From: Cyanobacteriota bacterium
GTDB lineage: Bacteria; Cyanobacteriota; Cyanobacteriia; PCC-6307; Cyanobiaceae
DNA: 64,000 nucleotides
Assembly (NCBI GenBank): GCA_046052125.1
Contig: JBJOMY010000003.1
Coordinates: forward strand, 192,001 to 256,000
Direction: 5' to 3'
Shown: positions 22,760 through 64,000 of the stretch, piece by piece
Position numbering within the stretch: position 1 is the first letter of the stretch
Layout of the letters: each line of letters starts with the position of its first letter
Made by a program: the position numbers and the translations under genes
The notes under the pieces: model-generated
Database searches by the model: none
Told to the model about the DNA's origin: nothing
The model's input: the letters and a program-made list of their open reading frames with translations, nothing else

Positions 22760-23671
22760 GTGCGTTCCTCCGCCTCACCAACCCCACTGATCTCCGATCT
22801 CCACGCTGCGGTTGCCGATCTGCGCAGTACGTCGAGCGGCCCGGCCATCCGGCGCCTGCTGCTGTTGCTCAGCCTGTTGGCCCTTGGCGGTGTTGTGTTT
22901 TGGAGCGTGGAGTGGCTGCCCCTGAGGGTGGCTGCCGCCGTGCTGGTAGCCCTGGCGGAAACGCTGCTGTTGATCGCAACCCATGAGGCCTGCCATGGCA
23001 CCTTGCTGGGGCGACGGCGGCTGGAGCTGGTGCTGGCGGCATTGATCAGTTGGCCGATGGCCTGGCCGCTCTGCACCTACCGGCTGTTGCATGGCCTCCA
23101 TCACCGCTGGAACGGCTCTGATCTGCGTGATCCGGAACGTGTGCACCGCCAACAGGGCGGCCAGTGGCGCTGGCTGTTGCTGGCGGGTGGGGCGGGTTTG
23201 ATCCTGCGCACCGTGCAGGAAGCGCTGGTGTTGCAAGCCCAGCATCCCGGGCTGCGCCGGGCTCTGCTCGCCGATGCTCTCGGCGTTGTGGTGGTGCAGG
23301 GCCTGTTGCTCACGCTGGCGCTGCAGCACGGCCAACTCTTGGCCTACGCACTCTGCTGGCTGCTCGTAGAGCGCCTGGCGGGTGCGCTGCTGCAGCTGCG
23401 GGGTGCCATTGAGCACTGGCAGCTGTGGCGGCCTCAGAGCCATCCCTTGCTCACCCAGCTCTACAGCTCCCGCACGGTTGACGTTCCCGCCTGGGTTAAC
23501 GAGTTTCTGGGTGGCTTACCCCATCACAGCGTGCATCACGCTTTTCCGGCGCTCACTACGGCAGCGCTCCCTACGGCCACCGAACGCGTGGAGAGGGTGT
23601 TGCGGGCCCATGGCTACTCGCCGCTGCCGCGTTGCCAGGGTTACGGCCAGGCGCTCAAGCTGCTGGCCTGA
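22760..23671 (+). CDS. Membrane fatty acid desaturase family protein
   Basis: Three His boxes HEACH, HGLHH, HHSVHH plus TM segments. Confidence 0.88.
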   Translation: MRSSASPTPLISDLHAAVADLRSTSSGPAIRRLLLLLSLLALGGVVFWSVEWLPLRVAAAVLVALAETLLLIATHEACHGTLLGRRRLELVLAALISWPMAWPLCTYRLLHGLHHRWNGSDLRDPERVHRQQGGQWRWLLLAGGAGLILRTVQEALVLQAQHPGLRRALLADALGVVVVQGLLLTLALQHGQLLAYALCWLLVERLAGALLQLRGAIEHWQLWRPQSHPLLTQLYSSRTVDVPAWVNEFLGGLPHHSVHHAFPALTTAALPTATERVERVLRAHGYSPLPRCQGYGQALKLLA

Positions 23672-23847
23672 AGATCCGGGTGGACAGCTGCCGCCTGCTG
23701 GAGCTTCTCCAGTAGCGGTGCCATCCACGGTTTCCAGATCTCTGCGGCAGCGCCATGGCTGCACGGTTTGTACAGGCTGCGGGCCCGGATTGTGTTGAGG
23801 AACAGCAGCAGCTCCTGCTGCGTGAGTTCCACCGAAATAGAGCGCAT
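23641..23847 (-). CDS. Small hypothetical protein
   Basis: ATG-started 68-aa ORF filling the gap downstream of psbA; no recognised motif. Confidence 0.35.
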   Translation of the reverse strand: MRSISVELTQQELLLFLNTIRARSLYKPCSHGAAAEIWKPWMAPLLEKLQQAAAVHPDLQASSLSAWP

Positions 23848-23930
23848 GCCAGAGCCTCCCAAACGGGGATCAGCAACCTCTAGGGGAGGCTCTGGAGCGC
23901 GGCTGTGGCGTGCCGCGCTTCTGCAGCAGA

Positions 23931-24983
23931 TCAGCCGTTGGCCTGCGTCCGGCTGGCTAGATCCAGGGGGAACTGATGGGCATTGCGCTCGTGGATTGCC
24001 TCAATGCCGAGGTTGGCGCGGGTGAGCACATCGGCCCAGGTGGGAATCACGCGGCCCTGGTGATCGAGCACGGAGTGATTGAAGTTGAAGCCATTGAGAT
24101 TGAAGGCAAAGCTGCACACCGCCAGCGCTGAACACCAGATGCCCAGCACGGGCCAGGCCGCCAGCAACCAGTGGATGCTGCGGCTGTTGTCGCTGCTGGC
24201 ATAGGGCATGATCACGCGCCCCAGATAGGCATGCGCCGCCACCAGGTTGTAGGTGGGTTCGCGCTGGCCAAACAGGTAGCCACGGTTGATCGACTCGTCT
24301 TCGGTGGTTTCACGAATCACCGTGCTGGTCACCAGCGAGCCATGCAGCGCCGCCAGCAGTGCGCCCCCGAAGCTGCCGGCCACGGCCAGCATGTGCAGTG
24401 GGTGCATCAGCACGTTGTGCTCGGCCTGCAGCACCAGCATGAAATTGAAGGTGCCGCTGATGCCGAGGGGCATGCCATCGGAGAAGGAGCCCTGCCCCAG
24501 CGGATACACCAGCAGCACCGCCATGGCGGCGGCCCAGGGGGCTGAAAAGGCCACGGCGATCCAGGGGCGCATGCCCAACCGATAGGAGAGCTCCCATTGC
24601 CGGCCCATCCAGGCGGTGATGCCGATCAGGAAGTGGAACACCACCAGTTGATAAGGCCCGCCGTTGTAGAGCCACTCCTCAACACTGGCCGCTTCCCAGA
24701 TGGGATAAAAGTGCAGGCCGATCGCGTTAGAGCTCGGCACCACGGCAGCGCTGATCAGGTTGTTTCCCCCGAGCAGTGAACCGCTCACCGGCTCACGGAT
24801 GCCATCGAGATCCACCGGCGGTGCCGCTACGAACGCCATCAAGAACACGCAGCTGGCGGTGAGCAGGGTGGGGATCATCAGCACCCCGAACCAGCCGATG
24901 TAGAGGCGGTTGTTGGTATCGGTGATCCATGCGCTAAAGCGCCGCCAGGGATTCACCCAGGCAGCTAATCGTGTTGTTGTCAT
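23931..24983 (-). CDS. psbA: Photosystem II D1 protein, divergent low-oxygen (D1'/group 3-like) variant
   Basis: [40 protein letters not shown]; carries G80A, F158L, F186L. Confidence 0.95.
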
Positions 24984-25253: not shown

Positions 25254-25460
25254 ATGTTCCTGCGAACCCGCGCCGATGGCTCGATCGTGGAGGTGTTGAG
25301 CTTGCCGCAGCTGTTTGATCCCTTCGCCAGCAGCGTGCAGGGTCGGTTGCATGCCGGTGAGGAGCTGCAGGAGCAGGAGGCTTTGGTTAAAGCCGACTTG
25401 ATCTTTCCTTCCGGTGAGTCGTTGCCCCGCTGCTGGCTGGATCCGCACTACCAGCAGTGA
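25254..25460 (+). CDS. Small conserved protein (GEELQ..FPSGE.LP.CW family)
   Basis: 68 aa ORF with a motif pattern I recall from a small cyanobacterial family of unknown function. Confidence 0.8.
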   Translation: MFLRTRADGSIVEVLSLPQLFDPFASSVQGRLHAGEELQEQEALVKADLIFPSGESLPRCWLDPHYQQ

Positions 25461-26091
25461 TCAGGGCGAGCACTTCGCCATCGCTCACCGGCTCAAAGCG
25501 CTCATACCAAGCCCCCACCGCCCAGAGGTTGTCCACCTCCGCCAGTGCGATCAGTGCATCGAGCTCCGGTCGCAGTCGGGCTGCCACCTGGCGATCGATC
25601 ACCGGCACCGCCAGCACCAGCCGGCTGGGGTTGGCTTGCCGCAGCGATTGCAAGGCGGCCCGCACCGTGAGCCCCGTGGCCACGCCGTCATCCACCACCA
25701 ACAGGGCGCGATGGCGCAGTGACGCCAACTCCGGGTCGCCGTAGAGGCGCCGTCGTCGCTCGAGCTCGCGGCTCTGCTCGGCCACGATCCGCTCGCGCAG
25801 GGCAGCATTGAGCCCATGGGCGTTGGCCGTGGTGTCGTCCCAGATCAGCACTCCGCCCGGTGCGATCGCTCCCAGGGCCAGCTCTGGTGCCAGTGGGTGC
25901 GCCAGTTTGCGCACGGCCCAGCTCGCCAGCGGCAGCTCAAGGGCGCGCGCCACTTCGGCGGCTACCACAATGCCCCCGCGCGGTAGCCCCAGCACCAGCG
26001 CATCGGGGCTCTTCCGCCATGAGGTCAGTCGTTCGGCGAGGGCGCGGCCGGCTTGGTTGCGGTCACGCCACAGCGCGGTTCCTCGAGCCAT
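25387..26091 (-). CDS. Phosphoribosyltransferase family protein (Rv0571c N-terminal type)
   Basis: RDR..AG..LA, LGLPRGG, VRKL, LVVDDGVATG PRPP motif, AVG.WY..F. Confidence 0.9.
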   Translation of the reverse strand: MARGTALWRDRNQAGRALAERLTSWRKSPDALVLGLPRGGIVVAAEVARALELPLASWAVRKLAHPLAPELALGAIAPGGVLIWDDTTANAHGLNAALRERIVAEQSRELERRRRLYGDPELASLRHRALLVVDDGVATGLTVRAALQSLRQANPSRLVLAVPVIDRQVAARLRPELDALIALAEVDNLWAVGAWYERFEPVSDGEVLALITAGSADPASSGATTHRKERSSRL

Positions 26092-28834
26092 GGCGATGGG
26101 TCCTCCAGAGGGTGCGGAGCTGATCGGCAAGCAGTGGTGCCGGAATGCACAGCAGCAACCACCACCACAACTGTGATGGGATCGGCGCCATCTGGAAGGT
26201 GCGGGCCAGGGGCGGCCAGCCCTGCAGCAGGGCGAAGGCCAGTAGCTCCGTGGCGATGCCGAGCAGCAGCAGGGCGTTGGGGCGTTGCTGGATTCGCCCG
26301 CGGCAGGCCAGGGCCGTGCCCACCTGGGCCGCAACGATTGAGCCCAGGGCCACGGCAGAGGCCTGCTGCTGAACAGCGATCACGGCCGCGGAGGCGTGGT
26401 GGTGCAGCAGATCTGCCGCCAGAGACCGGAGACCCACCAGGTTCACCCCCTCGCGCCACCAGGTGAGCCCGTAGCCGCTCATGGCGAGGACCCCCTCGAT
26501 CAGGCCAAAGAACAGATAGGCCTCCTGGAGCAGCGCGCGATCCAGCAGTGGTTGGTCGCGATGGCGCGGTGGCCGGTTCATCACCTCCGGCTGGGCTGGC
26601 TCGGCCCCCAGGCCCAGGGCCGGCAGCAGATCGGTGCCCAGATCGATCGCCAGGATCTGCAGCACGGTGAGGGCTGCCGGGATTCCCAGCAGCAGCATGG
26701 TGAGGAACGGCGCCACCTCCGCCACGTTCGAGGCGAGGATGTAGAGGATGAAGCGGCGGATGTTGTCGTACACGCCGCGGCCGTGCCGCACCGCCGAGAC
26801 GATCGTGGCGAAGTTGTCGTCCACCAGCACGATGTCGGCTGCTTCGCGGGCCACATCCGTGCCGCTTTTGCCCATGGCGATGCCTACATCAGCGGCCCTC
26901 AGCGCCGGGGCGTCGTTCACGCCATCGCCGGTCACGGCCACCACTTCGCCGAGTGCCCGGTAGGCGTGCACCAGCCGCAGCTTCTGCTCCGGTGCCATGC
27001 GGGCAAACACCAAGCGGGAGCGGTATTTCAGGAGCTGGCGCAGCTGAGCATCACTGAGCCGCTGCAGGTCGCTGCCGTTGATCACCCGCACGGGGTCGTG
27101 GTCGGCATGGGCCGGCGCCTCCAACAGTCCGATCTGCCGCGCGATCGCCTCAGCAGTGAGGCCGTAGTCGCCGGTCACCATCGTGACCTTGATGCCGGCG
27201 CGGTGGCAGGCAGCGATCGCTTTGCTCACGCCGGGCCGCGGCGGATCCACCAGGCCCACCAGGCCCAGCAACACCAGCTGCTGCTCCTCCAACTCCTGCC
27301 GCTGCCCGGGCCTGCAGGCGATCGCCAGCACCCGATACCCCTGGCGGGCCATCACATCGTTGGCCTCACTCACCAGCTGCCGCTCAGCCGGCCCCAGCGG
27401 CACCACCGTGCCGGCGCGCCACCAGTGGCTGCAGCGCTCCAGCAGCTCCAGCGGCGCACCCTTGCTGCCCACCATCCAGCTGCAGGGTTCTGGCCAGCGG
27501 TGATCGCCTTGCCAGTGCAGCAGCACGCTCATCAACCGCCGCTCGGAATCGAAGGGCAGCTCCTGCAGCCGGGGCAGTCGCTTGCGCTCCTGGTCCAGCT
27601 CCAGGCCGGCGCGCTGAGCGCCCTGGAGCAGCGCCGTTTCTGTGGGATCGCCAACCTCAAGGGAGGCGTTGCAGCACAGGGCAGCGATCAACAGCAGCAG
27701 CTGTTGATCGTCTCCCCAGATGCTCTGCAGCGTCATGGCGTTGGCCGTGAGCGTGCCGGTTTTGTCGGTGCAGATCACACTCACACAGCCGAGCGTTTCC
27801 ACCGCCGAAAGCCGCCGCACCAGAGCCCGCTCCCGGGCCATCCTCTTCACCGCCAGCGCCAGCGCCAGGGTGACGGTGGGGAGCAGACCCTCCGGCACAT
27901 TGGCCACGATGATGCCGATCGAGAACACCAGGCTCTCGAGCGGCTTCACGCCGACTAGCAGCACGCCGCCGAGGAAGGCCAGCGCTCCCATGCCAACGGC
28001 GATGCCGGTGATGGTGCGCACGATCCGCCCCACCTGCACCTCCAAGGTGCTGGCACCGCGTTCAACGCCGGCACTGAGATGCGCCACCTGGGCGAACTCC
28101 GTGTCGGATCCAGTGGCGTACACCAGCGCCTGCGCCCGGCCGGCCACCACGGTGGTGCCGGCTGGTAGCAAGTTGGCTGTGTCCGATGGATTGCCCCGCG
28201 GCGGCTGGCTGGTGGCCGTGCGTGCCACCGGCAACGCCTCCCCGGTGAGCACGGCGGCATTGAGCGACAGCTCCACCGCCTCGATCACCCGGCAGTCGGC
28301 CGGCACTTGATCGCCCGCCTCCAGCTCCAGTAAATCCCCCGGCACCAGGGTTTCCACCGGTAGGAGCTGCAGGGAGCCATCGCGCCAGACCCGCACCTGC
28401 CGAGGCAACACGTTGGTGAGGGCCGCGAGGGTGCGTTCGGCCTGAAAGTCCTGCCAGAAGCTGAATACTGCATTGATCAGCACCACGCTCCAGATCGCCC
28501 AGCCGAGTTCGGGTGTGCCGGCGAGAAAGGCCATCGTTCCCGCCACCCACAGCAGCAGAGCCATGAAGTGGGTGAGCTGATCGCTGAAGCGCAGAAGGAG
28601 GGGCCGTCGCCGCTGCGGCGGGAGCTGATTGGCTCCGAATCGCTCCAGCCGGATCGCGGCCTGGGCACTGCTCAAGCCTTGGGCGCTGCTTTCAAGGGCA
28701 CGAAGGGCTGTTGCTTGGTCGAGGCTGCAGATCGGCGGCGAAGCAGTGAGTGGCACAACACCGGTTCCTGGCTGTGGTTGCTGACTAGCGCCTTTGCGGA
28801 GGCCTGTCGCGTCTTCATCGTGAATGGGCTGCAA
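26063..28834 (-). CDS. Cation-transporting P-type ATPase (P2, CtpF-like)
   Basis: TGEA, VANVPEGL, DKTGTLT, KGAP, TGDGVNDAPAL; start uncertain. Confidence 0.95.
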   Translation of the reverse strand: MQPIHDEDATGLRKGASQQPQPGTGVVPLTASPPICSLDQATALRALESSAQGLSSAQAAIRLERFGANQLPPQRRRPLLLRFSDQLTHFMALLLWVAGTMAFLAGTPELGWAIWSVVLINAVFSFWQDFQAERTLAALTNVLPRQVRVWRDGSLQLLPVETLVPGDLLELEAGDQVPADCRVIEAVELSLNAAVLTGEALPVARTATSQPPRGNPSDTANLLPAGTTVVAGRAQALVYATGSDTEFAQVAHLSAGVERGASTLEVQVGRIVRTITGIAVGMGALAFLGGVLLVGVKPLESLVFSIGIIVANVPEGLLPTVTLALALAVKRMARERALVRRLSAVETLGCVSVICTDKTGTLTANAMTLQSIWGDDQQLLLLIAALCCNASLEVGDPTETALLQGAQRAGLELDQERKRLPRLQELPFDSERRLMSVLLHWQGDHRWPEPCSWMVGSKGAPLELLERCSHWWRAGTVVPLGPAERQLVSEANDVMARQGYRVLAIACRPGQRQELEEQQLVLLGLVGLVDPPRPGVSKAIAACHRAGIKVTMVTGDYGLTAEAIARQIGLLEAPAHADHDPVRVINGSDLQRLSDAQLRQLLKYRSRLVFARMAPEQKLRLVHAYRALGEVVAVTGDGVNDAPALRAADVGIAMGKSGTDVAREAADIVLVDDNFATIVSAVRHGRGVYDNIRRFILYILASNVAEVAPFLTMLLLGIPAALTVLQILAIDLGTDLLPALGLGAEPAQPEVMNRPPRHRDQPLLDRALLQEAYLFFGLIEGVLAMSGYGLTWWREGVNLVGLRSLAADLLHHHASAAVIAVQQQASAVALGSIVAAQVGTALACRGRIQQRPNALLLLGIATELLAFALLQGWPPLARTFQMAPIPSQLWWWLLLCIPAPLLADQLRTLWRTHRHGSRNRAVA

Positions 28835-28966
28835 TCAGAGCCGCAAGCGCTGTTGATCCTTGCGGGGTTCTAGAACGCAAGCGTTGGATCCCTAAGACAC
28901 GCACAGGGTTGGCTCAGTGCCTTGGCGTTGCTGCAACTGAAAAGAACGCACTGGGGCAACGGGCGC

Positions 28967-30064
28967 ATGCAGCGCTACGGCCTGGTTGCCGCCATGGTGT
29001 TGGTGGGTGGCGTATTGGTGCGCTTGGTGCACGGTGTTGTTGCTCCGGCGCAAGTGGATGACGCGCGCCTGGTCGTGCCATCCAGCCCCTTGGTGCCGGC
29101 TACGGAGCTTGTGGTAGCCCAGGAGCATGGCCGCCTGGGTCATCTCTATGTGCGTGAAGGGGCTGCAGTCGCTCCCGGACAGGCCCTGTTTTCGTTGAAG
29201 CGCGATCTCGAGATCGAACAGGATCTGGTGGATCGAGGGTTGGCGCGCGACATCACAGAAGTGAATGCTCAGATTCGCGAGTCGCGCCGGGCTCTTGATT
29301 CCTTGGCTGAGCGTTTGGTGCTCACTCGACCTGTGGCGAATCCGCAGTTTGAGCAGCAGATCGCCCTCGCTAGGCAGCGTTTGGATCGGCGCATCACGCT
29401 CTGGCTATCCGGTGGCCTGAGTCGCGATTTTGTGGATGAAGGTGAGGAGCGTCTGCTGCGTTTGAAGCGCGATGCCGCTCAGTGGCGGGAGGATCGCCAG
29501 AAGTTGGTGAGCTTGCAGCAGCTCATTCGGCAGCAGAACGCCCGCTTGGACGGGTTGTTGCAGCAGCAGACACAACTGCGCAGCAGCGATCTGCAACGGC
29601 GCGCCGAGGCGCGCGTGCATCCACCACTTCAATTCAACGAGCAGAGTCATCTCGCTTACGCCACTTATCGCGCTCCTGCTCGCGGCACGGTGCTGCGGCT
29701 GCTGAAGCAGCCCGGCGAGGCTGTGAAACCTCGCGAAGCGGTAGCGATTGTGCAGAAGGATCTGCCGCCTCCGGTGGTGGAGGCCAGGGTTCCGTGGTCG
29801 GGTCAGTGGTTCTTGATGCCTGATCAGGAAGCAAGAGTGGAGATCCCCTCGCTCCGCCAGCGCTACGACGCCCAAGCCGTTGCCGTTGATCATGGTGGAG
29901 ATGGTTGGCAGCGCGTGCGGCTGGCGTTGAAAGGGGTTCCAGCCACCGAGATGAGGCGTTTGCTGGCCTTGCCTGGAGAGCCGGTGCGCTTGACCATTCC
30001 CCAGGAGCATCTACTGGTGCGCTGGTTGCGTACACGGGAGCTGAAGGCCTGGGCCTCACCGTGA
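28967..30064 (+). CDS. HlyD/membrane-fusion-protein family periplasmic adaptor
   Basis: N-terminal TM, split lipoyl-like halves (V.EG..V..GQ.LF; APA.G.V...K.PGE.V) flanking a long coiled coil. Confidence 0.8.
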   Translation: MQRYGLVAAMVLVGGVLVRLVHGVVAPAQVDDARLVVPSSPLVPATELVVAQEHGRLGHLYVREGAAVAPGQALFSLKRDLEIEQDLVDRGLARDITEVNAQIRESRRALDSLAERLVLTRPVANPQFEQQIALARQRLDRRITLWLSGGLSRDFVDEGEERLLRLKRDAAQWREDRQKLVSLQQLIRQQNARLDGLLQQQTQLRSSDLQRRAEARVHPPLQFNEQSHLAYATYRAPARGTVLRLLKQPGEAVKPREAVAIVQKDLPPPVVEARVPWSGQWFLMPDQEARVEIPSLRQRYDAQAVAVDHGGDGWQRVRLALKGVPATEMRRLLALPGEPVRLTIPQEHLLVRWLRTRELKAWASP

Positions 30065-30726
30065 TGCTTGCCCTGGCGTTCGTGGTGATTCCCCATCTGC
30101 TCTGGGCCCAGCGGCTGGTTGCTGATCTGCGACCGGAACACAACAGCTATGGGCGCAATCCCTCTCTGGTGGTGTGGCGTGGTGTGGATGGAGCGCCGAT
30201 CAGCCGCAACCGCAGTGATTGCTCCAGCTTCATCACCGCGTTATGGAGCCGTGCCTACGGCTATGGCTCAGATCAGATGCGCCAGTGGCTTGGGGTTGCG
30301 GCACCGCGAGCACGCGACTATCACGACGCCATCGTGAAGGGCAATCGGTTTCAACGGATTGAGCGGATTGTCGATCTGCAGTCAGGTGATCTCCTGGCCA
30401 CGCGCTATCAGCGCAGCCGCTCTGATGCCACCGGGCACGTGATGTTGGCGGCGTCGCGGCCGACGGCTGTGGGTGTTTGTTCTGGGGTTTTGTGCGTGTT
30501 TCGGCTGCAGGTGATTGATTCATCCCGCAGCGGTCATGGACCACTCGATACCCGGCAAGGCAAGGCCGGCGTTGGCGAGGGTGTGATTCGGCTGCAGACC
30601 ACTCGAGATGGTCGTTTGCAGGGGTACCGCTGGAGTGAACGAGGCAGCTCCCGCTGGCGCTTGGCACCAGAGGAATCGCTGGTGGTGGGGCGGTTTATTG
30701 GGCCAGTGTCCAGAGCTGGTGGGTGA
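30064..30726 (+). CDS. Exported NlpC/P60-like (papain-fold) cysteine hydrolase
   Basis: Signal-like N-terminus, SDCSSF catalytic Cys, LQSGDLL, TGHVM His; TGATG coupling to the upstream gene. Confidence 0.65.
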   Translation: MLALAFVVIPHLLWAQRLVADLRPEHNSYGRNPSLVVWRGVDGAPISRNRSDCSSFITALWSRAYGYGSDQMRQWLGVAAPRARDYHDAIVKGNRFQRIERIVDLQSGDLLATRYQRSRSDATGHVMLAASRPTAVGVCSGVLCVFRLQVIDSSRSGHGPLDTRQGKAGVGEGVIRLQTTRDGRLQGYRWSERGSSRWRLAPEESLVVGRFIGPVSRAGG

Positions 30727-32874: not shown

Positions 32875-33052
32875 CGCGACGATGGTCGGATGTGATGGGT
32901 ATTGTTGATTTCCAGTGCGGCCTAAATGTTGTTGTCATGGTGATTTGCCGGCTGATCGCTGTGGATCTGCTGCGGGTTCCAGTGGATCCGTTGTTTGGCT
33001 GCCCCTGTTCTTGTCGAGCCCTTTAAGGCTGAGCTGACTTGACGGCTGATGG

Positions 33053-52001: not shown

Positions 52002-52026
52002 AAAAAAGGGACCGACAAGCGGTCCC
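52002..52026 (-). terminator. Rho-independent terminator after peptide gene 1
   Basis: Minus strand GGGACCG-cttgt-CGGTCCC-TTTTTT, 8 nt after the stop codon. Confidence 0.75.
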
Positions 52027-52033
52027 GATCTGA

Positions 52034-52458: not shown

Positions 52459-52881
52459 ATGGATCCTGGTGCCCTGCGCTTGGGAGCTCTTTGGGCTGCC
52501 TGGCTTTTTGTGATGCTGTTCCATGTGGAGCTTGGCTTAATGCCGCTCTTTCATGGCTTTTCTGTGGAAATCAAGAGCCAGGTCAGTGTCACTCGCTTGC
52601 CGCGTATCTTCTTCGCAATGCTGGTGTATTTCCTAATCCCTGTTCTTGCAATGCTTCTGGCTTTTCATGCGGTTTCAGGCCCTATCGCCTGGAGTGGTGC
52701 ATCTGGCTGGAGAGCGGCTCAGTTCTGGCTAAGCGCCATGTATAGCGGCACAAACGTTGCTCATCTGATCGCTGATATCAAAATTCCCGATGCACGGATG
52801 GATCAGGTTGTGTTGATGCTGGTCCTGACCCTGATTGGTTTGCTCCTGAATTGGCAAGCCTGGCTCTGGTGGCAAGGGTGA
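52459..52881 (+). CDS. Four-TM hypothetical membrane protein
   Basis: Four hydrophobic segments; GTGA overlap with the ZIP gene. Confidence 0.75.
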   Translation: MDPGALRLGALWAAWLFVMLFHVELGLMPLFHGFSVEIKSQVSVTRLPRIFFAMLVYFLIPVLAMLLAFHAVSGPIAWSGASGWRAAQFWLSAMYSGTNVAHLIADIKIPDARMDQVVLMLVLTLIGLLLNWQAWLWWQG

Positions 52882-54383: not shown

Positions 54384-54454
54384 CACGTTGGTGGTGATCA
54401 CTTAAGGCAACGCTATGGAACCCAGACCGACCTGGCGTTGTTCTGCAGCTGGCT

Positions 54455-55489: not shown

Positions 55490-56563
55490 TCAGCGTTGGT
55501 AGCGGTAGTAGGCCGCGCAGGCTCCTTCGCTCGACACCATCGGCGCCCCCATGGGTGCATCGGGTGTGCAGCGGGTACCAAAGCTTGGGCAATCACTGGG
55601 CCGGAGCAGGCCCTGCAACACCAGACCACTCGGGCATGTTTCTGGCGTTGCGGCAGTGCTGCTGGCGCTCGTTCCTTGTGCTCGGTGTACCGCCAACCGA
55701 TCGAATGGCGCCCTCAGCTGATAACCGCCGGCTCGAATCAGGCCTAGCCCCCTCCAGCGCGTGTCCACAGGTTCAAACACCTCCCCCAACAGCCGCTGGG
55801 CGCCTGGATTGCCGCCGCTTCTCACCGCGTTGACGTAGGCGTTCTCCAGTTGATGTCGGCCACTCTCGAGTTGCCGAACACAGCGCAGGATTCCCTGCAG
55901 CAACTCCTCCGCTGTGAAGCCGGTGATCACCACCGGCCGCTGATGCTTCTGCACCAGGGTCTTGAGTTCAGCGTCTCCCAGCACCGTGCACACGTGGCCG
56001 GCCGCTAACACCCCTTCCACGGCGCAGGCGGGATCGCTCAACAGCTGATCCAACACTGGGGCGACTCGCACATGGGCCACCAGCAGCTGCAGGTTGGACA
56101 ACCCTGCTGTTAAGGCCTGCTGTGCCAGAAGGGCTGTGGCTGGTGCGGTGGTTTCAAAGCCAACGGCGAAGAACACCACATGGCGGCCGGGATGTTGCCG
56201 GGCCAGGGTCAGCACATCCAACGGCGCGTAGACGATCCGCACATCTGCACCGACGGCGCGCAGGCTCAGCAGATCGCTGCCGGTGCTGCCAGGTACCCGC
56301 AGCATGTCGCCATAGGTGCACAGGATCACCCGTGGATCTTGCGCCAGAGCCAGGGCCTGGTCGATGCGCTCAAGAGCTGTGACGCACACCGGGCAGCCGG
56401 GGCCGTGGATCAGGGTGATCGCTTCAGGAAGGAGCTGATCGATGCCATGGCGCAACAGGGCGTGGGTTTGGCCGCCGCACACCTCCATCAGCGTCCAGGG
56501 CCGGCTGCACTCGGCATGGATCTGCTGGAGCAGCTCGCTGGCGGTGGTGTTCGCGCTGCTCAT
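55490..56563 (-). CDS. hypD: Hydrogenase maturation protein HypD
   Basis: MEVCGGQT, HGPGCPVC, GFETT, GHV, MVSSEGACAAYY. Confidence 0.97.
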   Translation of the reverse strand: MSSANTTASELLQQIHAECSRPWTLMEVCGGQTHALLRHGIDQLLPEAITLIHGPGCPVCVTALERIDQALALAQDPRVILCTYGDMLRVPGSTGSDLLSLRAVGADVRIVYAPLDVLTLARQHPGRHVVFFAVGFETTAPATALLAQQALTAGLSNLQLLVAHVRVAPVLDQLLSDPACAVEGVLAAGHVCTVLGDAELKTLVQKHQRPVVITGFTAEELLQGILRCVRQLESGRHQLENAYVNAVRSGGNPGAQRLLGEVFEPVDTRWRGLGLIRAGGYQLRAPFDRLAVHRAQGTSASSTAATPETCPSGLVLQGLLRPSDCPSFGTRCTPDAPMGAPMVSSEGACAAYYRYQR

Positions 56564-57579
56564 GTCTCGGACAGCCAGGGCGTGCTGTAGCTGCTTAACG
56601 CCCTCAGGTACTGCGCGCGCTCAAAGGCTTCGGGGTTCGGGCAGCGCTGCTGGCTGAGGCTGCCCCGCAGGGTTTCCAACTCGTGAACGTCGTGCTCGAG
56701 CAGCCACTGCATCAGCTCAGCGTGCATGCGCTCCAGCTGTCCGGGCCCATGGCGCAGCAGGGCACTCACCACTTGCGTCACCTGGGCACCCACCATCAGC
56801 ATGCGCACCACATCGGCGCCTGTGCTGATGCCGGTGCTGGCGGCGAGCTCCAGATCCACCCGGCCGTGCAGCAATCCGATCCAGCGCAGTGGTAGCCGTT
56901 GTTCTCCGGCATGGCTGAGCTCCAGATGGCTGTCGGTCTCAAGGGTGTCGATGTTCACCTCCGGTTGCAGGAATCGGTTGAACAGCACCAGGGCTCCGGC
57001 ACCAGCCAGCTGCAGCTGGCGAGCCATGGATGCCAGGGCCGTGTACCAGGGGCTGAGTTTCACGGCCACAGGCAGGCGGGTTGCGCTGCACACCTGGCGA
57101 ACGATCGCGATCTGTTCGGCTTCCAGCTCGGCACTGCTGCGGTTGGTGTCGCTGGGCACGCTGTAGAGATTGAGTTCGATCGCTGCTGCTCCCGCCTGCT
57201 CGATGGCGACGGCCGCGGATTGCCAGTGAGCGGGATGGTTGCCATTGAGGCTGGCGATCACCGGAATCGATAGAGCCTTGCTGGCCCTTTGGACCTCTTC
57301 GAGGTAGCCATCGAGGCCCAGATGGTGTGGTGTATTGGCCGGGACGTAGCTGATGGCTTCCGCGTAGCTCTCGCTGCCGTGCTGTTGGTGGTGAAGCCAC
57401 TCCTGCCAGTCGCGCTCGATCTGCTCCAGAAACAGCGAGTGCAACACGACCGCTCCGGCTCCTTCTCGCTCCAGTTGCACCAGGCGCTCCAGATCGGTGC
57501 TGAGTGGAGCAGCCGCACCCACCACCAGCGGTGAAGGCAACTCCAGACCCAGATAGCGCGTGGCCAGGGAGATGGTCAT
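56560..57579 (-). CDS. Dihydroorotate dehydrogenase-like FMN protein
   Basis: T.YLGL.L.SP, SLF.EQI, IASLNG, IELN, VKLSP, LVLFNRF.QP, LRWIG.L; start MTISLA overlaps the nifJ stop. Confidence 0.9.
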   Translation of the reverse strand: MTISLATRYLGLELPSPLVVGAAAPLSTDLERLVQLEREGAGAVVLHSLFLEQIERDWQEWLHHQQHGSESYAEAISYVPANTPHHLGLDGYLEEVQRASKALSIPVIASLNGNHPAHWQSAAVAIEQAGAAAIELNLYSVPSDTNRSSAELEAEQIAIVRQVCSATRLPVAVKLSPWYTALASMARQLQLAGAGALVLFNRFLQPEVNIDTLETDSHLELSHAGEQRLPLRWIGLLHGRVDLELAASTGISTGADVVRMLMVGAQVTQVVSALLRHGPGQLERMHAELMQWLLEHDVHELETLRGSLSQQRCPNPEAFERAQYLRALSSYSTPWLSET

Positions 57580-60500
57580 GGGGCAGGCTCGCCGGCTTGA
57601 GCCAGGCGTTGGTAGAGATCCCAGCGCTGCTTGAGCTCCTGCTCCGCTTGGCGCGTGAGCATGCGCGCTTGCTCTGGATCGCTGTAGCGCAGCATCCGAA
57701 AACGGTTTTCGCTGGCCATCGCTTCGGCCAGGGGCACGCTGGGGCTGCGGGAGTCGATGCTCAGGGGCGGCAATCCAGCTGCGGCGCGGCGTGGGTCGTG
57801 GCGATAGAGCAACCAGCGGCCGGCATCCACTGCCTGCTTCTGCTGCGCCATGCCCTTGGCCATGTCGATGCCGTGGGCGATGCAATGGGAGTAGGCCAGG
57901 ATCAGCGAGGGGCCGGGGTACGACTCCGCTTCCAAGAAGGCTCGCAGCGTGTGCTCGTCGCGGGCGCCCATGGCCACGCTGGCCACATACACGTGGCCGT
58001 AGGTCATCGCCATCAAGCCGAGGTCCTTCTTGCCGGTGGTTTTGCCGCCGCTGGCGAACTTGGCAACTGCGCCCTTCGGCGTGGCCTTCGACATCTGTCC
58101 GCCGGTGTTGGAGTACACCTCCGTGTCGAGCACCAGCACATTCATGTCGTGGGTGCTGGCGAAGAGGTGATCGAGACCACCGAAGCCGATGTCGTAAGCC
58201 CAGCCATCGCCGCCCACGATCCACACACTGCGCTTCACCAGATCGTCGGCCAGATCCAGGAGTTCGCGTGCCAAGGGCGCATTGGGGTCAGGAGCGTCGC
58301 TTTGTTCCGTCAGAGCCTGCAGCGCCAGCTTCAGGGCGGTGACCCGTTCGCGTTGCTCATGGATGCCTGCTTCATCGATCTGCTCCGCCTCCAGTAGGCC
58401 TGTGATCAAAGTGCTCGGTAGCTGGCCTGCCAGGGCGCGCAGCAGCCGTTCGGCGCGGCGGCGGCGCTGATCGAAGGCCACTCGGAACCCCAACCCGAAT
58501 TCGGCGTTGTCTTCAAACAGCGAATTGCTCCAGGCGGGGCCGCGCCCCTCGCCATTGCTGCTCCAGGGAGTGGTGGGAAGGTTGCCGCCGTAGATCGACG
58601 AGCAGCCGGTGGCGTTGGCGATCACCATGCGATCGCCGAACAGCTGGCTGGCGAGCTTGAGGTAAGGCGTTTCGCCGCAGCCGGCGCAGGCGCCTGGGAA
58701 TTCGAACAGGGGCTGCTGCAGCTGTTGTTGGTTGATGTGCTGCAGGTTGAGGCTGCGGCGATCCAGCTCCGGCAAACCCAGGAAATAGGCCCAGTGCTCG
58801 CGGCTCTGCTCACGCAGGGGCCGCTGCGGTGCCATGTTCAGCGCCTTGCGCCGGGGCTCGCTGCGATCGCGGGCTGGGCAGACCTCCACACAGAGGTTGC
58901 AGCCGGTGCAGTCTTCCGCTGACACCTGGATCGTGAAGCTTTGGCCTCTCCAGTGGTGGTCGCGGGCCGGCGCCGTGCGGAAGCCAGGGGGTGCGGTTGC
59001 CAGCTGCTCTGGCTCAGCAACCTTGGCCCGGATCACGGCATGGGGACACACCATCACGCACTTGCCGCACTGCACGCAGAGATCGGGCTCCCACACCGGT
59101 ACCTGCTCGGCGATGTTGCGCTTCTCCCAGCGACTGGTTCCTGTGCTGAAGCTGCCATCACAGGGGATGGCGCTCACGGGGAGCTGATCGCCGCGGCGCT
59201 GCAGTTGGGGGAGCAGTAAGTCCTGCAACTCAGCGGGGGCGGCCGCCAGGCCAGCGGGGATGGGCAGCTCGCTCAGAGGTGCTTCCGCCATGAGCGGAGC
59301 GGCGTCGGCGGGGACTGTCAGTTCCTGCAGGCCACTGCGGGCTGCCTCCATGGCTGCGAGGTTCGCCGCCACCACCTGATCCCCCTTGCGCCCATAGCTC
59401 GTTTGGATCGCCGAGCGCATCGCCAGTAGCGCCTGCTCCAGCGGCATCAGGTCTGCCACGGCGAAAAAGGCCACCTGCATCACCGTGTTGATGCGTCCTC
59501 CCAGGCCGTGCTCGCGGGCGATCGAGGCGGCATCCACCACAAACACCCGCAGCCGCTTGCGCTGGATCAGCTGCTGCACTCGCTCTGGCAGCTGCGACCA
59601 ACACTGGTCCGCTGGCCAGGGTGCGTTGAGCAGCAGCGTTCCGCCTGGGGCAGCCAGCTCCAGGAGGTCGAATTGCTGGAGAAAGTCCCAGTGGTGACAG
59701 GCCAGGAGCTGGGCCTGCTGGATCAGGTGGCTGGCTTCAATCGGCCGCGGGCTAAACCGCAGGTGCGACACCGTGACCGAGCCGGCCTTCTTGGAGTCGT
59801 ACACGAAGTAGCCCTGGCCGTGGAGACCCGTGGCGTCGCCAACGATCTTGAGGGTGTGCTTGTTGGCACCCACCGTGCCGTCGGAACCCAGACCCACAAA
59901 CACCGCCCGCAGTGTGTCGGCCGTTTCGATCGCAAAGCCAGCGTCCACCGGCAGCGACAGTTGGGTGACGTCGTCGTGGATCCCCACCGTGAAGTGCCGG
60001 CGTGGCTGATCGGCGGCGAGGTTGTCGAACACCGCCTTCACCATCGCCGGTGTGAACTCCTTCGAGGCGATCCCGTAGCGGCCGCCCACCACCAGGGGCA
60101 TATCGGCCGTGGGCCAGTGTTCGCAGACGGCCGCCAGGACGTCGAGGTAGAGCGGTTCACCCTGGCTGCCCGGTTCCTTGCAGCGATCCAGCACGGCGAT
60201 CCGCCGGGTGCTCCGCGGCAGGGCCGCCACCAGGGCGTCCCCGGCCAAGGGGCGGAACAGCCGCACCTTCAGCACTCCCACCCGCTCGCCGGCTGCGAGT
60301 AGCGCCTCAGCTGTGGAGCAGGCGGTGCTGCAACCGCTCCCCATCAGCACGATCACCCGCTCAGCTTCAGGGTGCCCCTGGTAGTCGAACAGGTGATAAC
60401 GGCGACCGGTGAGTGCCGCGAACTGATCCATCGCCGCCTGCACATGGGCAGGCAGTGCGTTGTGGAAGGGGTTCACAGCTTCCCGGGCTTGGAAGGCCAC

Positions 60501-61172
60501 ATCCGGGTTCTGGCTGGTGCCCCGCAGCGCTGGATGATCGGGTGAAAGGCCCCGGGCCCGGTGGGCTGCCACCAGGGTCTCCGGCACCAGAGCCATCAGC
60601 ACCGCATCGCTGATCAGCTCCACCCGCTGGATTTCGTGGGAGGTGCGGAAGCCATCAAAGCTGTGCAGCAGCGGAAGCCGCCCCGCCAGGCTGGCGGCTG
60701 TGGCGATGGCGGCGAAGTCGCCGCACTCCTGCACCGACGCTGCGAACAGCATCCCCCAGCCGGTGCTGCGGGCCGCCATCACATCGCTGTGGTCGCCGAA
60801 GATCGAGAGGGCTGAGGTGGCCAGCGCCCGTGAGGCCACATGGATCACCGCGGCGGTGAGCTCTCCAGCAATCTTGTAGAGGTTGGGCAGCATCAACAGC
60901 AAGCCCTGCGATGCGGTGAAGGTGGTGGTGATGGCTCCGGCCTGAAGGGCGCCGTGCACCATGCCGGCGGCACCGCCCTCGCTCTGCATTTCCACCACCT
61001 GGGGCACCTGGCCCCAGAGATTGGGGCGCCCTTCACTGGCCCAGGCATCCGCCCATTCTCCCATCGGCGAGGCGGGGGTGATCGGGTAGATCGCCATCAC
61101 TTCGTTGAGCCGGTAGGCGACCCGCGCGGCCGCTTCGTTGCCATCGAGCCAGGCCAGCTCGCTGGTGCTCAT
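57576..61172 (-). CDS. nifJ: Pyruvate:ferredoxin/flavodoxin oxidoreductase
   Basis: DGNEAAA, YPITP, EMQSEGGA, two CxxCxxC ferredoxin motifs, GACAGCGE, GGDGWAYDIG; start MSTSEL overlaps the hypC stop. Confidence 0.97.
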   Translation of the reverse strand: MSTSELAWLDGNEAAARVAYRLNEVMAIYPITPASPMGEWADAWASEGRPNLWGQVPQVVEMQSEGGAAGMVHGALQAGAITTTFTASQGLLLMLPNLYKIAGELTAAVIHVASRALATSALSIFGDHSDVMAARSTGWGMLFAASVQECGDFAAIATAASLAGRLPLLHSFDGFRTSHEIQRVELISDAVLMALVPETLVAAHRARGLSPDHPALRGTSQNPDVAFQAREAVNPFHNALPAHVQAAMDQFAALTGRRYHLFDYQGHPEAERVIVLMGSGCSTACSTAEALLAAGERVGVLKVRLFRPLAGDALVAALPRSTRRIAVLDRCKEPGSQGEPLYLDVLAAVCEHWPTADMPLVVGGRYGIASKEFTPAMVKAVFDNLAADQPRRHFTVGIHDDVTQLSLPVDAGFAIETADTLRAVFVGLGSDGTVGANKHTLKIVGDATGLHGQGYFVYDSKKAGSVTVSHLRFSPRPIEASHLIQQAQLLACHHWDFLQQFDLLELAAPGGTLLLNAPWPADQCWSQLPERVQQLIQRKRLRVFVVDAASIAREHGLGGRINTVMQVAFFAVADLMPLEQALLAMRSAIQTSYGRKGDQVVAANLAAMEAARSGLQELTVPADAAPLMAEAPLSELPIPAGLAAAPAELQDLLLPQLQRRGDQLPVSAIPCDGSFSTGTSRWEKRNIAEQVPVWEPDLCVQCGKCVMVCPHAVIRAKVAEPEQLATAPPGFRTAPARDHHWRGQSFTIQVSAEDCTGCNLCVEVCPARDRSEPRRKALNMAPQRPLREQSREHWAYFLGLPELDRRSLNLQHINQQQLQQPLFEFPGACAGCGETPYLKLASQLFGDRMVIANATGCSSIYGGNLPTTPWSSNGEGRGPAWSNSLFEDNAEFGLGFRVAFDQRRRRAERLLRALAGQLPSTLITGLLEAEQIDEAGIHEQRERVTALKLALQALTEQSDAPDPNAPLARELLDLADDLVKRSVWIVGGDGWAYDIGFGGLDHLFASTHDMNVLVLDTEVYSNTGGQMSKATPKGAVAKFASGGKTTGKKDLGLMAMTYGHVYVASVAMGARDEHTLRAFLEAESYPGPSLILAYSHCIAHGIDMAKGMAQQKQAVDAGRWLLYRHDPRRAAAGLPPLSIDSRSPSVPLAEAMASENRFRMLRYSDPEQARMLTRQAEQELKQRWDLYQRLAQAGEPAP

Positions 61173-61360
61173 GGCTCCGGCTCCAGCACCGTGAGCGCCA
61201 CGCCCACATGCACCAGCAGCTGATCTCCCACCTGTGCCTCCGGCACGCAGGCCAGGCTCACCTGGCGCAGCACGCCGCCGAAGCACACCTCGCCCATGCG
61301 CCAGAGCGGATCGGCATGGTCGCTGATGCTCACCAGCTCACCGGCGACGGCCAGGCACAT
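61169..61360 (-). CDS. hypC: Hydrogenase maturation chaperone HypC
   Basis: MCLAV.G, VGD..LVHVG.A. Confidence 0.93.
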   Translation of the reverse strand: MCLAVAGELVSISDHADPLWRMGEVCFGGVLRQVSLACVPEAQVGDQLLVHVGVALTVLEPEP

Positions 61361-61379
61361 GGCGTGCAGCCTGCGGGGA

Positions 61380-63704
61380 TCACTGATTTATAGGCATGGT
61401 TTCAGCGGCGAGCAGCTGACCGATCGGCAGGGCGGCGTCGTTGCAGGGAAGTTGCTGCGGCCAGAGGGCCTGGCAGCCCTGCTGGCGCAGAGCCTGGATG
61501 CTGAGCTCCAGCAGCAGGGCGTTTTGAAAGCAACCACCCGCCAGCAAGAGGCGTTCAGCGCTTTGTGCGCTCGCCAGCGCCGCGATGGCATTGGCCAGGG
61601 CCTGGTGGAATCCAAGGGCGATCGACTCGGCAGGAATCTCAGCGGCCAGGGACTGAAGCAGTTGCTCCAGTAGCGGTTGCCAGTTCCATTGCCAGAGATG
61701 GCTTGGCCTGTGTTCCAGGGGGAGCTGCAGCTGGCAGGCGGGTGTCTGGTGCTCCAGGGCCTGCAGGGCTAGCGCTTCCAGGGCCATGGCGGCCTGGGCT
61801 TCGTAGCTGCAGCGCTGCACCACGTTGAGCAGGGCCGCGACGGCATCAAACAACCGGCCAACACTGGAGCAGAGCGGGCTGTTGAGCCCCTGCGCAACGC
61901 TCTGCTCCAGCACGGTGAGCTCCTCACTGCTGAAGGCCTGGCGCCAAGCCAAGCCGGGTAGCCCGCCGATGCGCTCGCGCCACTGAGCGCCAAAGGCTTC
62001 CAGCAACAGTCCAAGAGCGGCACGGCGCGGTTCCCGTTGGGCTCGTTCCCCGCCCGGTAGCGCCCATGGCCGCAACCGAGCGATGCGCTGGTAGCCGTTG
62101 GGATTGATCAGCAACGCTTCTCCGCCCCAGAGGCTGCCGTCGTCTCCCTGGCCGGAGCCATCCCAGGCCACACCGAGTGCCGTTGCGCTGAGCTGATGCT
62201 CGGCCATCACCGCCAGCAAGTGCGCATGGTGGTGCTGCACGGTCTGCAGCGGCAGATCGCTGCTGCCTGCCCACTCAGCGCCCCACTGGCTTGAGCTGTA
62301 GCCGCTGTGCTGGTCGCAGAGCAGACGGTTCACGTTCAACCCCTGGCGCCTCAGCCATTGCTGGCAGGTGTGCTGGTGGTGCAGGGCTCCGGCATGACTG
62401 CTCAGGTCGCCCAGGTCTGGGCTCAGCAGCCGGTGACTGGAGGTTTGCAGCGCCAGGCTTCCCTTGATCTGGGCTCCGAGAGCCAGGGCGCCGCAGGTGT
62501 CATGGCTGGCGCTGGGCAGGGCCAGTGGCGCCAGACCGCGACCCAGGCGTAGCACCAGCGGGCCGCCTCCAGCCCAGCGCAGCACGCTGTCGTCGATGCG
62601 GTTGGTGATCGCCAGGCTGTGGCCGAGCACGTGATCGGCCAGCGCTTCCAGCTGCTCCGCATCGGCCGTTGCATCACGGCAGATCGGCTCACCCGAGCGG
62701 TTGGCGCTGGTGGCCACCAGCACGCCGCCGCAGCGTTCTAGCAATAGTTGCTGCAGGCCGCTGCTGGGGCGCATCACGCCTAGCCATGGCGATGAGCCCG
62801 CCACGGCACTGGAGATCGCAGGATCGTCTGGGCTGCGGCGGCGCACCAACACGATCGGCGCCGCTCTTGAGTGCCATAGAGCCCGCTCTTCGTTGCTGAT
62901 CAGGCAGTGATGCTCGAGCCAATGGGCATCGGCCAACAACGCCAGTGGTTTGTGCGGCCGGCCCTTGCGTTGCCGCAACCGCAGGTTGGCTGCATCGTTG
63001 GCCGGATCCACCAGGAGTTGGAAGCCGCCCACACCCTTCAGGGCAACGATCGCTCCGGCCCGCAGAGCCGCGGCTGCTGCATCGAGGCCTTCCGCAACTG
63101 ACGTGGGTGATCCGTTCCAGAGCAGCTGCGGTCCGCAGGAAGGGCAGCTGATCGTTTGGGCGTGAAAACGCCGATCGCTGGGGTTGCTGTATTCCGCTTG
63201 GCAGGTTGGGCAGAGCGGCAGCGCCTTGAAGCTGGTGTGCTCCCGCTCGAATGGCACCTGCTCCACCACGCTGTAGCGGGGGCCGCAATCGGTGCAGCTG
63301 ATGAAGGGGTAGCCGTTCCGCCGGCTTTGAGGATCGGTGAGTTCGCTCAGGCAGGCGTCGCAGATCGCCAGATCAGGGCTCACCAGCGCAGTGCTGTTGG
63401 TATCCCGTTGCGGGGGCAGGATCTGCAGGCCGCCGCCGCTACCGCGGGCCTGGCTCCAGCTCAAGGCGTGTTCATCAATCCGCGCCTGCGTCGGTGGTTG
63501 GCTGAGAAGCTGCGCGGTGAAGGCTTCCAGCGCCGAGCGGCTGCCCTCCAACTCGAGGTGAACGCCGCTGCTGCTATTGGCCACGGTGCCGCTCACGCCA
63601 TGCACCGCGGCCAGGCGCACCACGTGGGGGCGCAGGCCCACCCCCTGCACCAGCCCCTGCAGGTGCAGGCTGAGGTGCTGCGGATGCTCAGCCGGTTTGG
63701 CCAT
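61380..63704 (-). CDS. hypF: Carbamoyltransferase HypF
   Basis: [10 protein letters not shown], zinc-finger CxxC pairs, RRFHAQ, KGVGGF, QHHHAH, DG.G.G.DG, PCND. Confidence 0.96.
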
Positions 63705-64000
63705 CGAGCCAGTCGATCAGTGCATCCATCCCGCTGCCGGTGCGGGCCGATAGCTCAAACAGCTCCGCCTGCGGAGCGATGGCACGCAGATTGGCGATCG
63801 CCCCCCGGCGATCGAAGACCACCGCCTCGGCGATGTCGGTTTTGTTGATCACCACGGCATCGGCGCTTTTGAACAGGGCCGGGTATTTGAGCGGTTTGTC
63901 TTCCCCTTCCGTGACCGACAGCACGGCGATGCGCCGCGCTTCTCCCAGATCGAAGGCGGCCGGGCACACCAGATTGCCCACGTTTTCAATCACCAGCAGG
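63688..64000 (-). CDS. hypB: Hydrogenase nickel incorporation GTPase HypB (3' part only)
   Basis: [33 protein letters not shown]. Confidence 0.95.

Follow-up and report, generated by a model that had tools for sequence, protein, structure and literature searches.

The 64,000-nt stretch analysed here (the window; G000:C3:192001-256000) comes from an apparently Vulcanococcus-type freshwater picocyanobacterium of the Cyanobiaceae with a 2.64-Mb genome (G000; 10 contigs, 64–66% GC), and near-identical DNA is contained in aquatic metagenomes (freshwater, estuarine and others) from several studies. From about position 22,683 to beyond its right end, the window carries a ~51-kb block that combines hydrogenase and fermentation genes with a divergent psbA, protection genes, an exporter and its own regulators. 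We consider it fairly probable (about 0.6) that this is a clade-specific, vertically inherited block at a recombination hotspot, prone to deletion and rearrangement and not a mobile element, whose predicted function lies in the dark or at low oxygen.

As we reconstruct it, the hotspot would lie between a Lactamase_B_3 gene and Tic22/ilvB/hemH. An old backbone would consist of a first part (cfa, a sigma-70 factor gene with a convergent ribbon-helix-helix (RHH) gene, a hydrolase gene, cyAbrB, a degenerate GAF-GGDEF gene, Hsp20, a further RHH gene and a NarL-type regulator gene) and a second part (hypE-hypD, a DHOD-like gene, nifJ, hypC, hypF, hypB, hypA, a hoxW-like gene, hoxHYUFE and ppsA). In the clade, this backbone would have been joined to a D1′-like psbA, a P-type ATPase, a desaturase and a C39-ABC exporter of double-glycine (GG) peptides, with three genomes adding a poly-gamma-glutamate cassette. 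Pfam and NCBIfam scans, together with searches of G000 itself, found every functional class that a sequence-only reading of the window had listed, at the positions it had given.

Extent of the block and its inheritance

For the site comparison, three 20-kb queries covering window positions 20,001–80,000 were searched by blastn against 44 other species genomes of the genus, and the fetched loci were then mapped gene by gene with tblastn. Breakpoints relative to empty-site genomes delimit an indel from ~22,683 to ~72.5–73.7 kb, or ~51 kb (positions past the window are taken from L001, the DNA just beyond it). The start at 22760 proposed in the sequence-only reading is the left breakpoint, the last core gene ending at 22682, while its minimum length of 41 kb has grown with the right breakpoint at ~72.5–73.7 kb. 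The comparison with relatives that it had called for revealed presence or absence of the block between syntenic flanks.

In 11 congeners the flanks are adjacent: the Lactamase_B_3 gene is followed directly by Tic22 in G023 (flanks 238 bp apart by blastn), G043, G049, G024, G047, G022 and G004, and the FAD gene by Tic22 after ~1 kb in G019, G018, G055 and G015. Another eight (G014, G050, G005, G053, G010, G041, G016 and G059) harbor ppsA alone between the flanks. A single contig spans the whole block, collinear up to both flanks, in G008, G042, G007 and G021 (for G007 by blastn only), and G017, G011 and G054, the last of these being the closest relative (82–90% DNA identity), have it spread over several collinear contigs; parts of it were seen in G002 and G051, and its desaturase end and hyp-hox-ppsA end in G057. 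Two genomes bear deletion scars. In G020, psbA residues 120–352 abut hoxF residues 1–183, followed by hoxE, ppsA and Tic22, and in G048 a psbA tail of 47 residues and a ppsA head of 44 residues remain after the desaturase gene. Both retain the FA_desaturase gene, and ~43–49 kb of the block have been deleted.

A maximum likelihood tree built from four proteins of the flanks (the FAD protein, IlvB, photolyase and HemH) in 32 genomes groups every genome with the island or a scar into a single clade of 11 members (SH-aLRT 100), 9/11 of which carry the block. The scar genomes are nested in this clade, with G048 as sister to the island-bearing G042. A tree of ten island proteins from eight genomes recovers the same clade at 100/100, including the inner group G042+(G021,G017), with G043 and G049 outside; the two trees place G000 slightly differently with respect to G057 and G008. 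Among clade members, the island proteins reach identities (nifJ 84–86%, ppsA 88–91%, sigma 91–94%) in the range of the flanks (FAD protein 83–93%, IlvB 93–95%), and the sequences indicate that the island genes co-diverge with their flanks. From the shared clade, the flank-range identities and the nested scars we therefore infer that the block was present in the clade ancestor, was inherited vertically and was lost at least two times by large deletions; absence in G020 and G048 is secondary because these nested genomes bear the scars. The sequence-only term "accessory region" is apt in that the block is a true indel with conserved flanks, but it does not describe a recent acquisition, the block being clade-wide, collinear and co-diverging with its flanks.

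A recently acquired mobile genomic island, meaning a horizontally transferred integrative element or phage-like insertion, would account for the sharp presence or absence against many congeners with adjacent flanks, for the occurrence of the same block elsewhere in the chromosomes of G043 and G049, and for the low GC of the export block. It could likewise explain why the small ORFs and an island-type ATPase adjoin ppsA in G056 (C4) and G004 (C33), where the order known from G000 (ATPase … cfa … hox-ppsA) is cyclically permuted. However, no tRNA gene was found in the window or the 20 kb that follow it, no shared repeat of at least 11 bp at the block junctions, and no integrase or transposase specific to the island among ~55 ORFs scanned, bearing out the earlier remark that neither an integrase nor a tRNA boundary is visible. 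The only Phage_integrase-family ORF (E 1e-6) lies 5 kb outside, to the right, and is kept at empty sites. Hence, the block lacks the marks of an integrative mobile element (integrase at one end, tRNA or att repeats at the borders) and shows those of a flexible island, namely presence or absence between syntenic flanks, while being collinear in at least seven congeners. Its overall GC is 62% vs. 66% in the left flank, only 47.3–53.6 kb being clearly deviant (52–55%). With island divergence approximating flank divergence, the same clade recovered from both and deletion scars in two nested genomes, a mobile origin appears very improbable.

Marine Prochlorococcus and Synechococcus carry flexible or hypervariable genomic islands, which the present block resembles as a large indel between core flanks with niche genes and variable cargo at one hotspot. 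It differs from them by the absence of a flanking tRNA and by a cargo that is clade-wide, collinear and co-diverging rather than strain-specific. Moreover, its loss by deletion is shown by scars, and the same cargo occupies a second hotspot in other lineages.

Conversely, the block could be plain core genome of the clade, with hox, hyp and nifJ near-core for the genus and the "island" nothing but ordinary synteny. This would fit its presence in nine of the 11 clade genomes of the tree, hyp-nifJ region matches in at least 32/44 congeners (blastn), and the hox and hyp genes of most freshwater and brackish subcluster 5.2 strains as given in PMC9361551, which defers island prediction to future work. 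Yet, two clade members have deleted most of the block, five congeners (including the 100%-complete G023 and G024) gave no blastn match to 40001–60000, the location differs between clades and the content varies inside the clade, making this alternative improbable.

Outside the block, bases 1–22,682 encode ordinary picocyanobacterial core functions according to Pfam (chlL, a por-like SDR, crr6, accA, the alkane pair, S1, Tab2, photolyase), ending with the FAD-dependent protein (20189–21964, minus strand) and the Lactamase_B_3 protein (21939–22682, plus strand), the last conserved DNA before the island. This left flank was found in 44/44 congeners by blastn and adjoins Tic22 in seven empty-site genomes. 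A core cyAbrB copy (19885–20250, plus strand) between the photolyase and FAD genes is kept at every empty site. To the right, core genes follow in the order Tic22, ilvB, M23 peptidase, hemH, integrase-family ORF, cobO, pyrH and frr. Between ppsA and Tic22, an ORF of 393 aa that weakly matches Peripla_BP_6 (E 2e-5; L001:8466-9647, ~window 72.5–73.6 kb, minus strand) overlaps the 5′ part of the long Tic22 ORF call; it occurs wherever ppsA or the island does and is absent from the seven basal empty-site genomes. The single hemH of G000 (L009:17543-18721 = G000:C3:269543-270721, ~window 77.5–78.7 kb) has DNA identities of 99% and 98% to additional, non-syntenic copies in G021 (C11:78123-79301) and G011 (C130:4209-5387), respectively, with surrounding DNA only ~80–85% identical. 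These near-identical copies could reflect recent allele exchange or cross-contamination among metagenome-assembled genomes (MAGs); second hemH copies (83–87%) also exist in G010, G023, G049 and G024. A contig titled "MAG: Asaia bogorensis" (L003, CALRQW020000001.1) bears a complete picocyanobacterial island collinear with the Vulcanococcus record L004, and its title looks mislabelled.

Conserved linkage at a second site and in other genera

In our view, the most interesting result is that, across sites and genera, the sigma/RHH pair stays linked, along with cfa, Hsp20, the degenerate GGDEF gene and the exporter, to hyp-hox-nifJ-ppsA. Two complete genomes of basal position, G043 and G049, have an empty Lactamase_B_3/Tic22 site, and ~600 kb away the block order appears as ppsA-hoxEFUYH-hoxW-like-hypA-hypB-hypF-(nifJ-DHOD-like in G049)-hypD-hypE … NarL-RHH … Hsp20-GGDEF-(hydrolase)-RHH-sigma-cfa, which is the G000 order reversed. 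The genes bordering this second site are direct neighbours in G000 (C1:544884 and 545261), and the order is kept there despite protein identities of only 45–79%. Contig C3 of G019 is collinear from hypE to cfa, followed by HlyD-C39ABC, and the stress/regulator block is collinear in G008, G042, G021, G017, G019, G043 and G049. The most widely conserved core is the cfa-sigma-RHH trio or the sigma-RHH pair, which recurs across the genus and in other genera.

Matches to the island sigma factor at E ≤1e-70 occur in 67 of 201 family genomes (at least 90% complete), representing 14 of 36 genera. Sixteen of its neighbourhoods (±10 kb) were fetched from 10 other genera; six hold at least four island gene families, two of these including hyp, hox or nifJ. 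The neighbourhoods comprise nifJ-hypD-hypE-ATPase-GGDEF-Hsp20-cfa-sigma-RHH-hydrolase-cyAbrB in G083, hypF-hypB-hypA-hoxW-like-hoxHYUFE-RHH-sigma in G129, HlyD-C39ABC-family-less ORF-RHH-sigma-cfa-Hsp20-GGDEF-hydrolase in G188, and the exporter, RHH and Hsp20 in G202, G063 and G203 (in G203 also cfa). Most block genes are single-copy in the 2.6-Mb genome, with paralogues in the sigma, cyAbrB, ABC and ATPase families. As most of the genes are single- or few-copy, the recurrence of their linkage is not expected by chance, although related genomes are not independent samples. The order kept at the second site and the subsets found in six other genera therefore support functional coupling, and together these gene orders suggest that the neighbourhood predates the clade.

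Linkage and order also bear on the possibility that unrelated flexible genes merely piled up by chance at a recombination hotspot, their juxtaposition having no functional meaning. Several observations fit such a pile-up and, with others, weigh against an inherited functional unit. Depending on the lineage, the site is empty, holds ppsA only or, in G006, ppsA plus 9.3 kb of unrelated DNA. The poly-gamma-glutamate (pgs) cassette, an extra ATPase and the export block each vary on their own; the cassette and the ATPase come and go, so that part of the block behaves as unrelated flexible cargo. Linkage is not universal, the stress and hyp-hox blocks residing on different contigs in G050 (C22 vs. 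C1) and G014 (C4 vs. C6). No k-mer motif is shared among 25 island intergenic regions, in which only GC-rich 8-mers enriched four-fold, and no 9- or 10-mers, were found. The export block has a GC content of 52.5% vs. 62–66% (by genome, 52.5% in G000, 53% in G021, 57–59% in G008, G042 and G017, and 63–67.5% in G019 and G050). Lastly, the flank tree rests on only four genes, all adjacent to the island, and G057 was classed as "full" in it though the middle part of its block was not found by blastn. Nevertheless, the order cfa-sigma-RHH … NarL … hypE … hox-ppsA is kept at the other site in G043 and G049, six further genera have subsets beside the sigma orthologue, among them nifJ-hypDE in G083 and hox-hyp in G129, and single- or few-copy genes that repeatedly fall within 20 kb of each other in a ~2.6-Mb genome are far from chance, even if relatives are not independent. 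A mere pile-up is thus rather unlikely.

A bolder proposal, which we offer tentatively, would extend the vertically inherited block to the family level: the sigma/RHH pair, its short sigma protein being an alternative sigma factor, might anchor a dark/low-oxygen regulon of freshwater Cyanobiaceae that travels as a 25–50 kb unit without mobility genes, is relocated between hotspots and is shed whole when low-oxygen niches are abandoned. Its contents might be hyp-hox-nifJ-ppsA, cfa, Hsp20, the degenerate GAF-GGDEF gene as a sensor, cyAbrB and the GG-peptide exporter and, in one clade, D1′ plus the P-type ATPase.

Predicted functions in the dark and at low oxygen

Picocyanobacteria of fresh and brackish waters survive in dark layers devoid of oxygen, by means of genes that are only partly known. 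By its gene content, the block may equip the cell for dark or low-oxygen periods. Pyruvate would be oxidised by PFOR and recycled by PpsA, and the Hox hydrogenase, for whose maturation the complete set of Hyp proteins is encoded, would shed electrons as H2. D1′ would replace standard D1, and Cfa, Hsp20 and the ATPase would safeguard ion balance, membranes and proteins. Transcription is probably controlled by the local sigma, RHH, cyAbrB and NarL proteins. Conserved linkage across sites and genera gives real though indirect support to such a common role.

The fermentation genes form a densely packed run on the minus strand (53625–64000), which opens with a 258-aa family-less ORF and continues with hypE and hypD (54455–56563; NCBIfam), the DHOD-like gene (56560–57540) between nifJ and hypD, nifJ encoding PFOR (57576–61172; full-length match to the equivalog model TIGR02176, 1646.7 bits, cut-off 911), hypC (61169–61360; PF01455, own-genome search), hypF (61380–63704; NCBIfam) and hypB (63688 onward; Pfam). 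In the run from hypC to hypE, start and stop codons overlap at hypC/nifJ, where hypC overlaps the true nifJ start at 61172, and at DHOD-like/hypD. Past the window follow, likewise on the minus strand, hypA, the hoxW-like ORF, hoxH, hoxY, hoxU, hoxF, hoxE and ppsA (L001:390-8473, ~window 64.4–72.5 kb; Pfam/NCBIfam). The hox structural genes, which the sequence-only reading had suspected beyond base 64000, thus lie at L001:1191-5994 (~window 65.2–70.0 kb), and hoxE, F, U, Y and H as well as hypA–F are all present. The HoxW model PF01750 had no match in G000; the S. elongatus control was likewise silent and gave no guidance for cyanobacteria. A 156-aa ORF between hoxH and hypA displays a GN…GDDG…D pattern, which we take to be a mark of HoxW-type C-terminal endopeptidases.

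A hyp-nifJ-hox module is already known. In the available parts of the report on Synechococcus WH 5701 (Barz et al. 2010, PMC2974642), hoxEFUYH, hypABCDEF and nifJ are likewise clustered, with nifJ embedded among hyp near hox, and the published inference is fermentative electron disposal as H2. The present cluster differs by including ppsA and the DHOD-like gene and by its tie to ~30 kb more (D1′-like psbA, ATPase, cfa, sigma/RHH, cyAbrB, Hsp20 and exporter), of which these parts of PMC2974642 make no mention. According to PMC13588713 and its supplement, hox and hyp of Cyanobium BSA11S rise by log2 0.1–0.55 in dark anoxia, with light rather than oxygen dominating expression. Two further results from that strain weigh against the explanation favoured here: oxygen explained only 3% of the expression variance, and hypBA resides in a different gene context.

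Low-oxygen co-regulation of the block is a prediction, as is a low-oxygen role of its non-hydrogenase genes. The RNA libraries are metatranscriptome contigs lacking an oxygen contrast, whose differences in cover and depth say nothing on regulation; contigs from three libraries of three studies cover 51.2–52.15 kb, Hsp20 and parts of nifJ. The deepest of them correspond to the GG-peptide stretch (51772–52258).

Concerning photosystem II, the divergent island psbA (23931–24983, minus strand; TIGR01151, 632 bits) shares ~75% identity with the standard copy in the N-terminal part and 66% with a C-terminal fragment. As in the low-oxygen D1′ isoform, it is a separate divergent copy that keeps YZ and all Mn-cluster ligands (D170, E189, H332, E333, D342 and A344), as do 4/4 orthologues. 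Position 80 is Ala in 5/5 (island copy plus orthologues) compared to Gly in the standard copy, position 158 is Leu in 4/5, including the island copy, compared to Phe, and position 286 is Ser in 4/5 (including the island copy) and Ala in 1/5, compared to Thr. We assume G80A, F158L and T286A to be the signature of D1′ (group 3, the low-oxygen-induced D1), which A80 and L158 match; Ser instead of Ala at 286 and the extra QB-pocket changes F265S/T and N266D set the island protein apart. A literature search for D1′ signature residues retrieved no paper, and in a PDB sequence search with the island D1 all D1 chains scored alike, D1′ and D1 being inseparable. Fragments of standard psbA sit at contig ends (C3 353889–354560 and C1 6–335), where the assembly break is probably due to the multi-copy standard psbA.

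The first gene of the island encodes an FA_desaturase-family membrane enzyme (22760–23671, plus strand; PF00487, E 1e-24). Three small ORFs of 68, 102 and 56 aa without Pfam match (25254–25986, plus strand) precede the P2-type cation-transporting P-type ATPase (26063–28834, minus strand; Pfam E1-E2_ATPase, Cation_ATPase_N/C), which the NCBIfam IIA and IIC families match below their cut-offs. The first two small ORFs (68 and 102 aa) are conserved in relatives, and homologues adjoin hypE in G049 and other genera. Further along follows cfa (35428–36744, plus strand; NCBIfam).

The regulators begin with a short sigma-70 factor of 279 aa (36797–37636, plus strand; Pfam) and a convergent CopG/RHH_5 protein (37696–37977, minus strand; Pfam), succeeded by the stress/regulator block (38132–46551; Pfam/NCBIfam). 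The latter includes an alpha/beta hydrolase, the cyAbrB paralogue (39168–39635; Pfam PF14250, the C-terminal AbrB-like domain, E 7e-22), which is one of ~10 in the genome (42–54% identity to the island copy), a GAF-GGDEF protein (39683–40678; Pfam), Hsp20 (40728–41162; Pfam), a 102-aa ORF, a double SpoIIAA-like protein (41634–42359), a second PGA_cap protein (42445–43554; Pfam), PEBP/YbhB, two family-less ORFs, a second RHH_5 protein (45543–45737; Pfam) and the NarL-type regulator (45934–46551; Pfam). Of the four RHH proteins claimed in the sequence-only reading, these two were detected; the other two escaped detection by Pfam, and a relaxed scan of 22 small or family-less ORFs yielded no additional RHH proteins or other families. 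At 45267–45542, G000 is devoid of a P-type ATPase gene of ~2.2–2.6 kb (39% identity with the island ATPase) that sits between the family-less ORFs and the second RHH gene in G008, G042, G021 and G017, with a 32% relative at this place in G049.

Putative matrix cargo and implications for picocyanobacteria

What the sequence-only reading had abbreviated as PGA is poly-gamma-glutamate here. The predicted synthetase cassette consists of a HlyD-like adaptor (28922–30064, plus strand; Pfam), a long, 330-aa PgsC-like protein (30695–31687, minus strand; CapC domain 76 bits, gathering threshold 27; TIGR04011 39.8 bits, below the cut-off of 96), PgsB (31678–32874, minus strand) and a 685-aa CapA/PGA_cap protein with an N-terminal CarboxypepD_reg domain (33053–35110, plus strand; PGA_cap domain 150 bits). 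PgsB scores above the NCBIfam equivalog cut-off for the amide ligase (TIGR04012, 319.5 bits, cut-off 222.7), and the adjacency of CapC-domain and PGA_cap proteins resembles Bacillus-type PgsBCA/CapBCA. Departures from that system are the long PgsC, the extra N- and C-terminal parts of CapA, the HlyD-like adaptor and the cyanobacterial host; neither PgsE nor CapD was seen among the scanned ORFs. Our literature search found no description of a cyanobacterial gamma-PGA system. As one block (28,653–35,134), the cassette is missing from G008 (140 bp left), G042, G017 and G002 and, besides G000, present in G007 and G021. Protein searches detected pgsB in 2/29 congeners (2/24, then 0/5 more, the latter 65–84% complete). 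The closest named pgsB records are MAGs titled Vulcanococcus sp., and MAG loci with the titles Leptolyngbyaceae, Halothece and Okeania likewise contain the pair of pgsB and long pgsC (50% and 36–43% identity).

Both glycines of the GGDEF motif are needed for catalysis. The signature of the GAF-GGDEF protein is degenerate, reading GDEEF in G000 without an RxxD I-site, and non-canonical in 10/10 orthologue rows (GDEEF, VDEEL, GDNEF, YDEEF or YDESF), i.e. it departs from that of a diguanylate cyclase. This counts against the protein's part in the proposed unit as an active cyclase driving matrix production, a role that seems doubtful.

The low-GC export block (47349–53633; 52–55%) opens with a family-less ORF and comprises an HlyD adaptor (48168–49538, minus strand; Pfam), an exporter uniting Peptidase_C39, ABC_membrane and ABC_tran in one protein (49439–51694, minus strand; Pfam), two tandem GG-leader peptide genes just upstream of it (51772–51981 and 52034–52258, minus strand), a membrane ORF (52459–52881, plus strand) and a ZIP transporter (52851–53633, plus strand), relative to which the order of the block differs between genomes. 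The peptides (70–74 aa) have Gly/Asn/Ser/Ala-rich cores and no family match. In S. elongatus PCC 7942, small GG-motif proteins (EbfG) exported by a C39-ABC transporter (PteB) enable biofilm formation, as described in PMC4997328; the likeness is one of architecture only, namely a C39-ABC exporter plus adaptor with adjacent double-glycine-leader small proteins. By analogy, the island peptides may act in biofilms, but they could equally belong to a bacteriocin system.

Given this distribution, the matrix half of the lifestyle proposed in the sequence-only reading, in which matrix production and fermentation were co-regulated, is weakened and in part contradicted: it is the least conserved (pgs in 2/29 congeners), and the GGDEF motif is degenerate in all orthologues examined. 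Matrix production by gamma-PGA and secreted GG peptides would be an optional add-on, not the conserved core.

In this lineage, our results show the hydrogenase and PFOR genes to be part of a larger, evolutionarily stable block with a special D1, genes for membrane and protein protection and its own regulators. Deletions of the whole block occur naturally in sister species, and genomes of the G020 and G048 types represent natural knock-outs for dark-anoxic survival. Finally, the block offers a candidate regulon, with the cyAbrB paralogue and the sigma/RHH pair as candidates for its master regulators.

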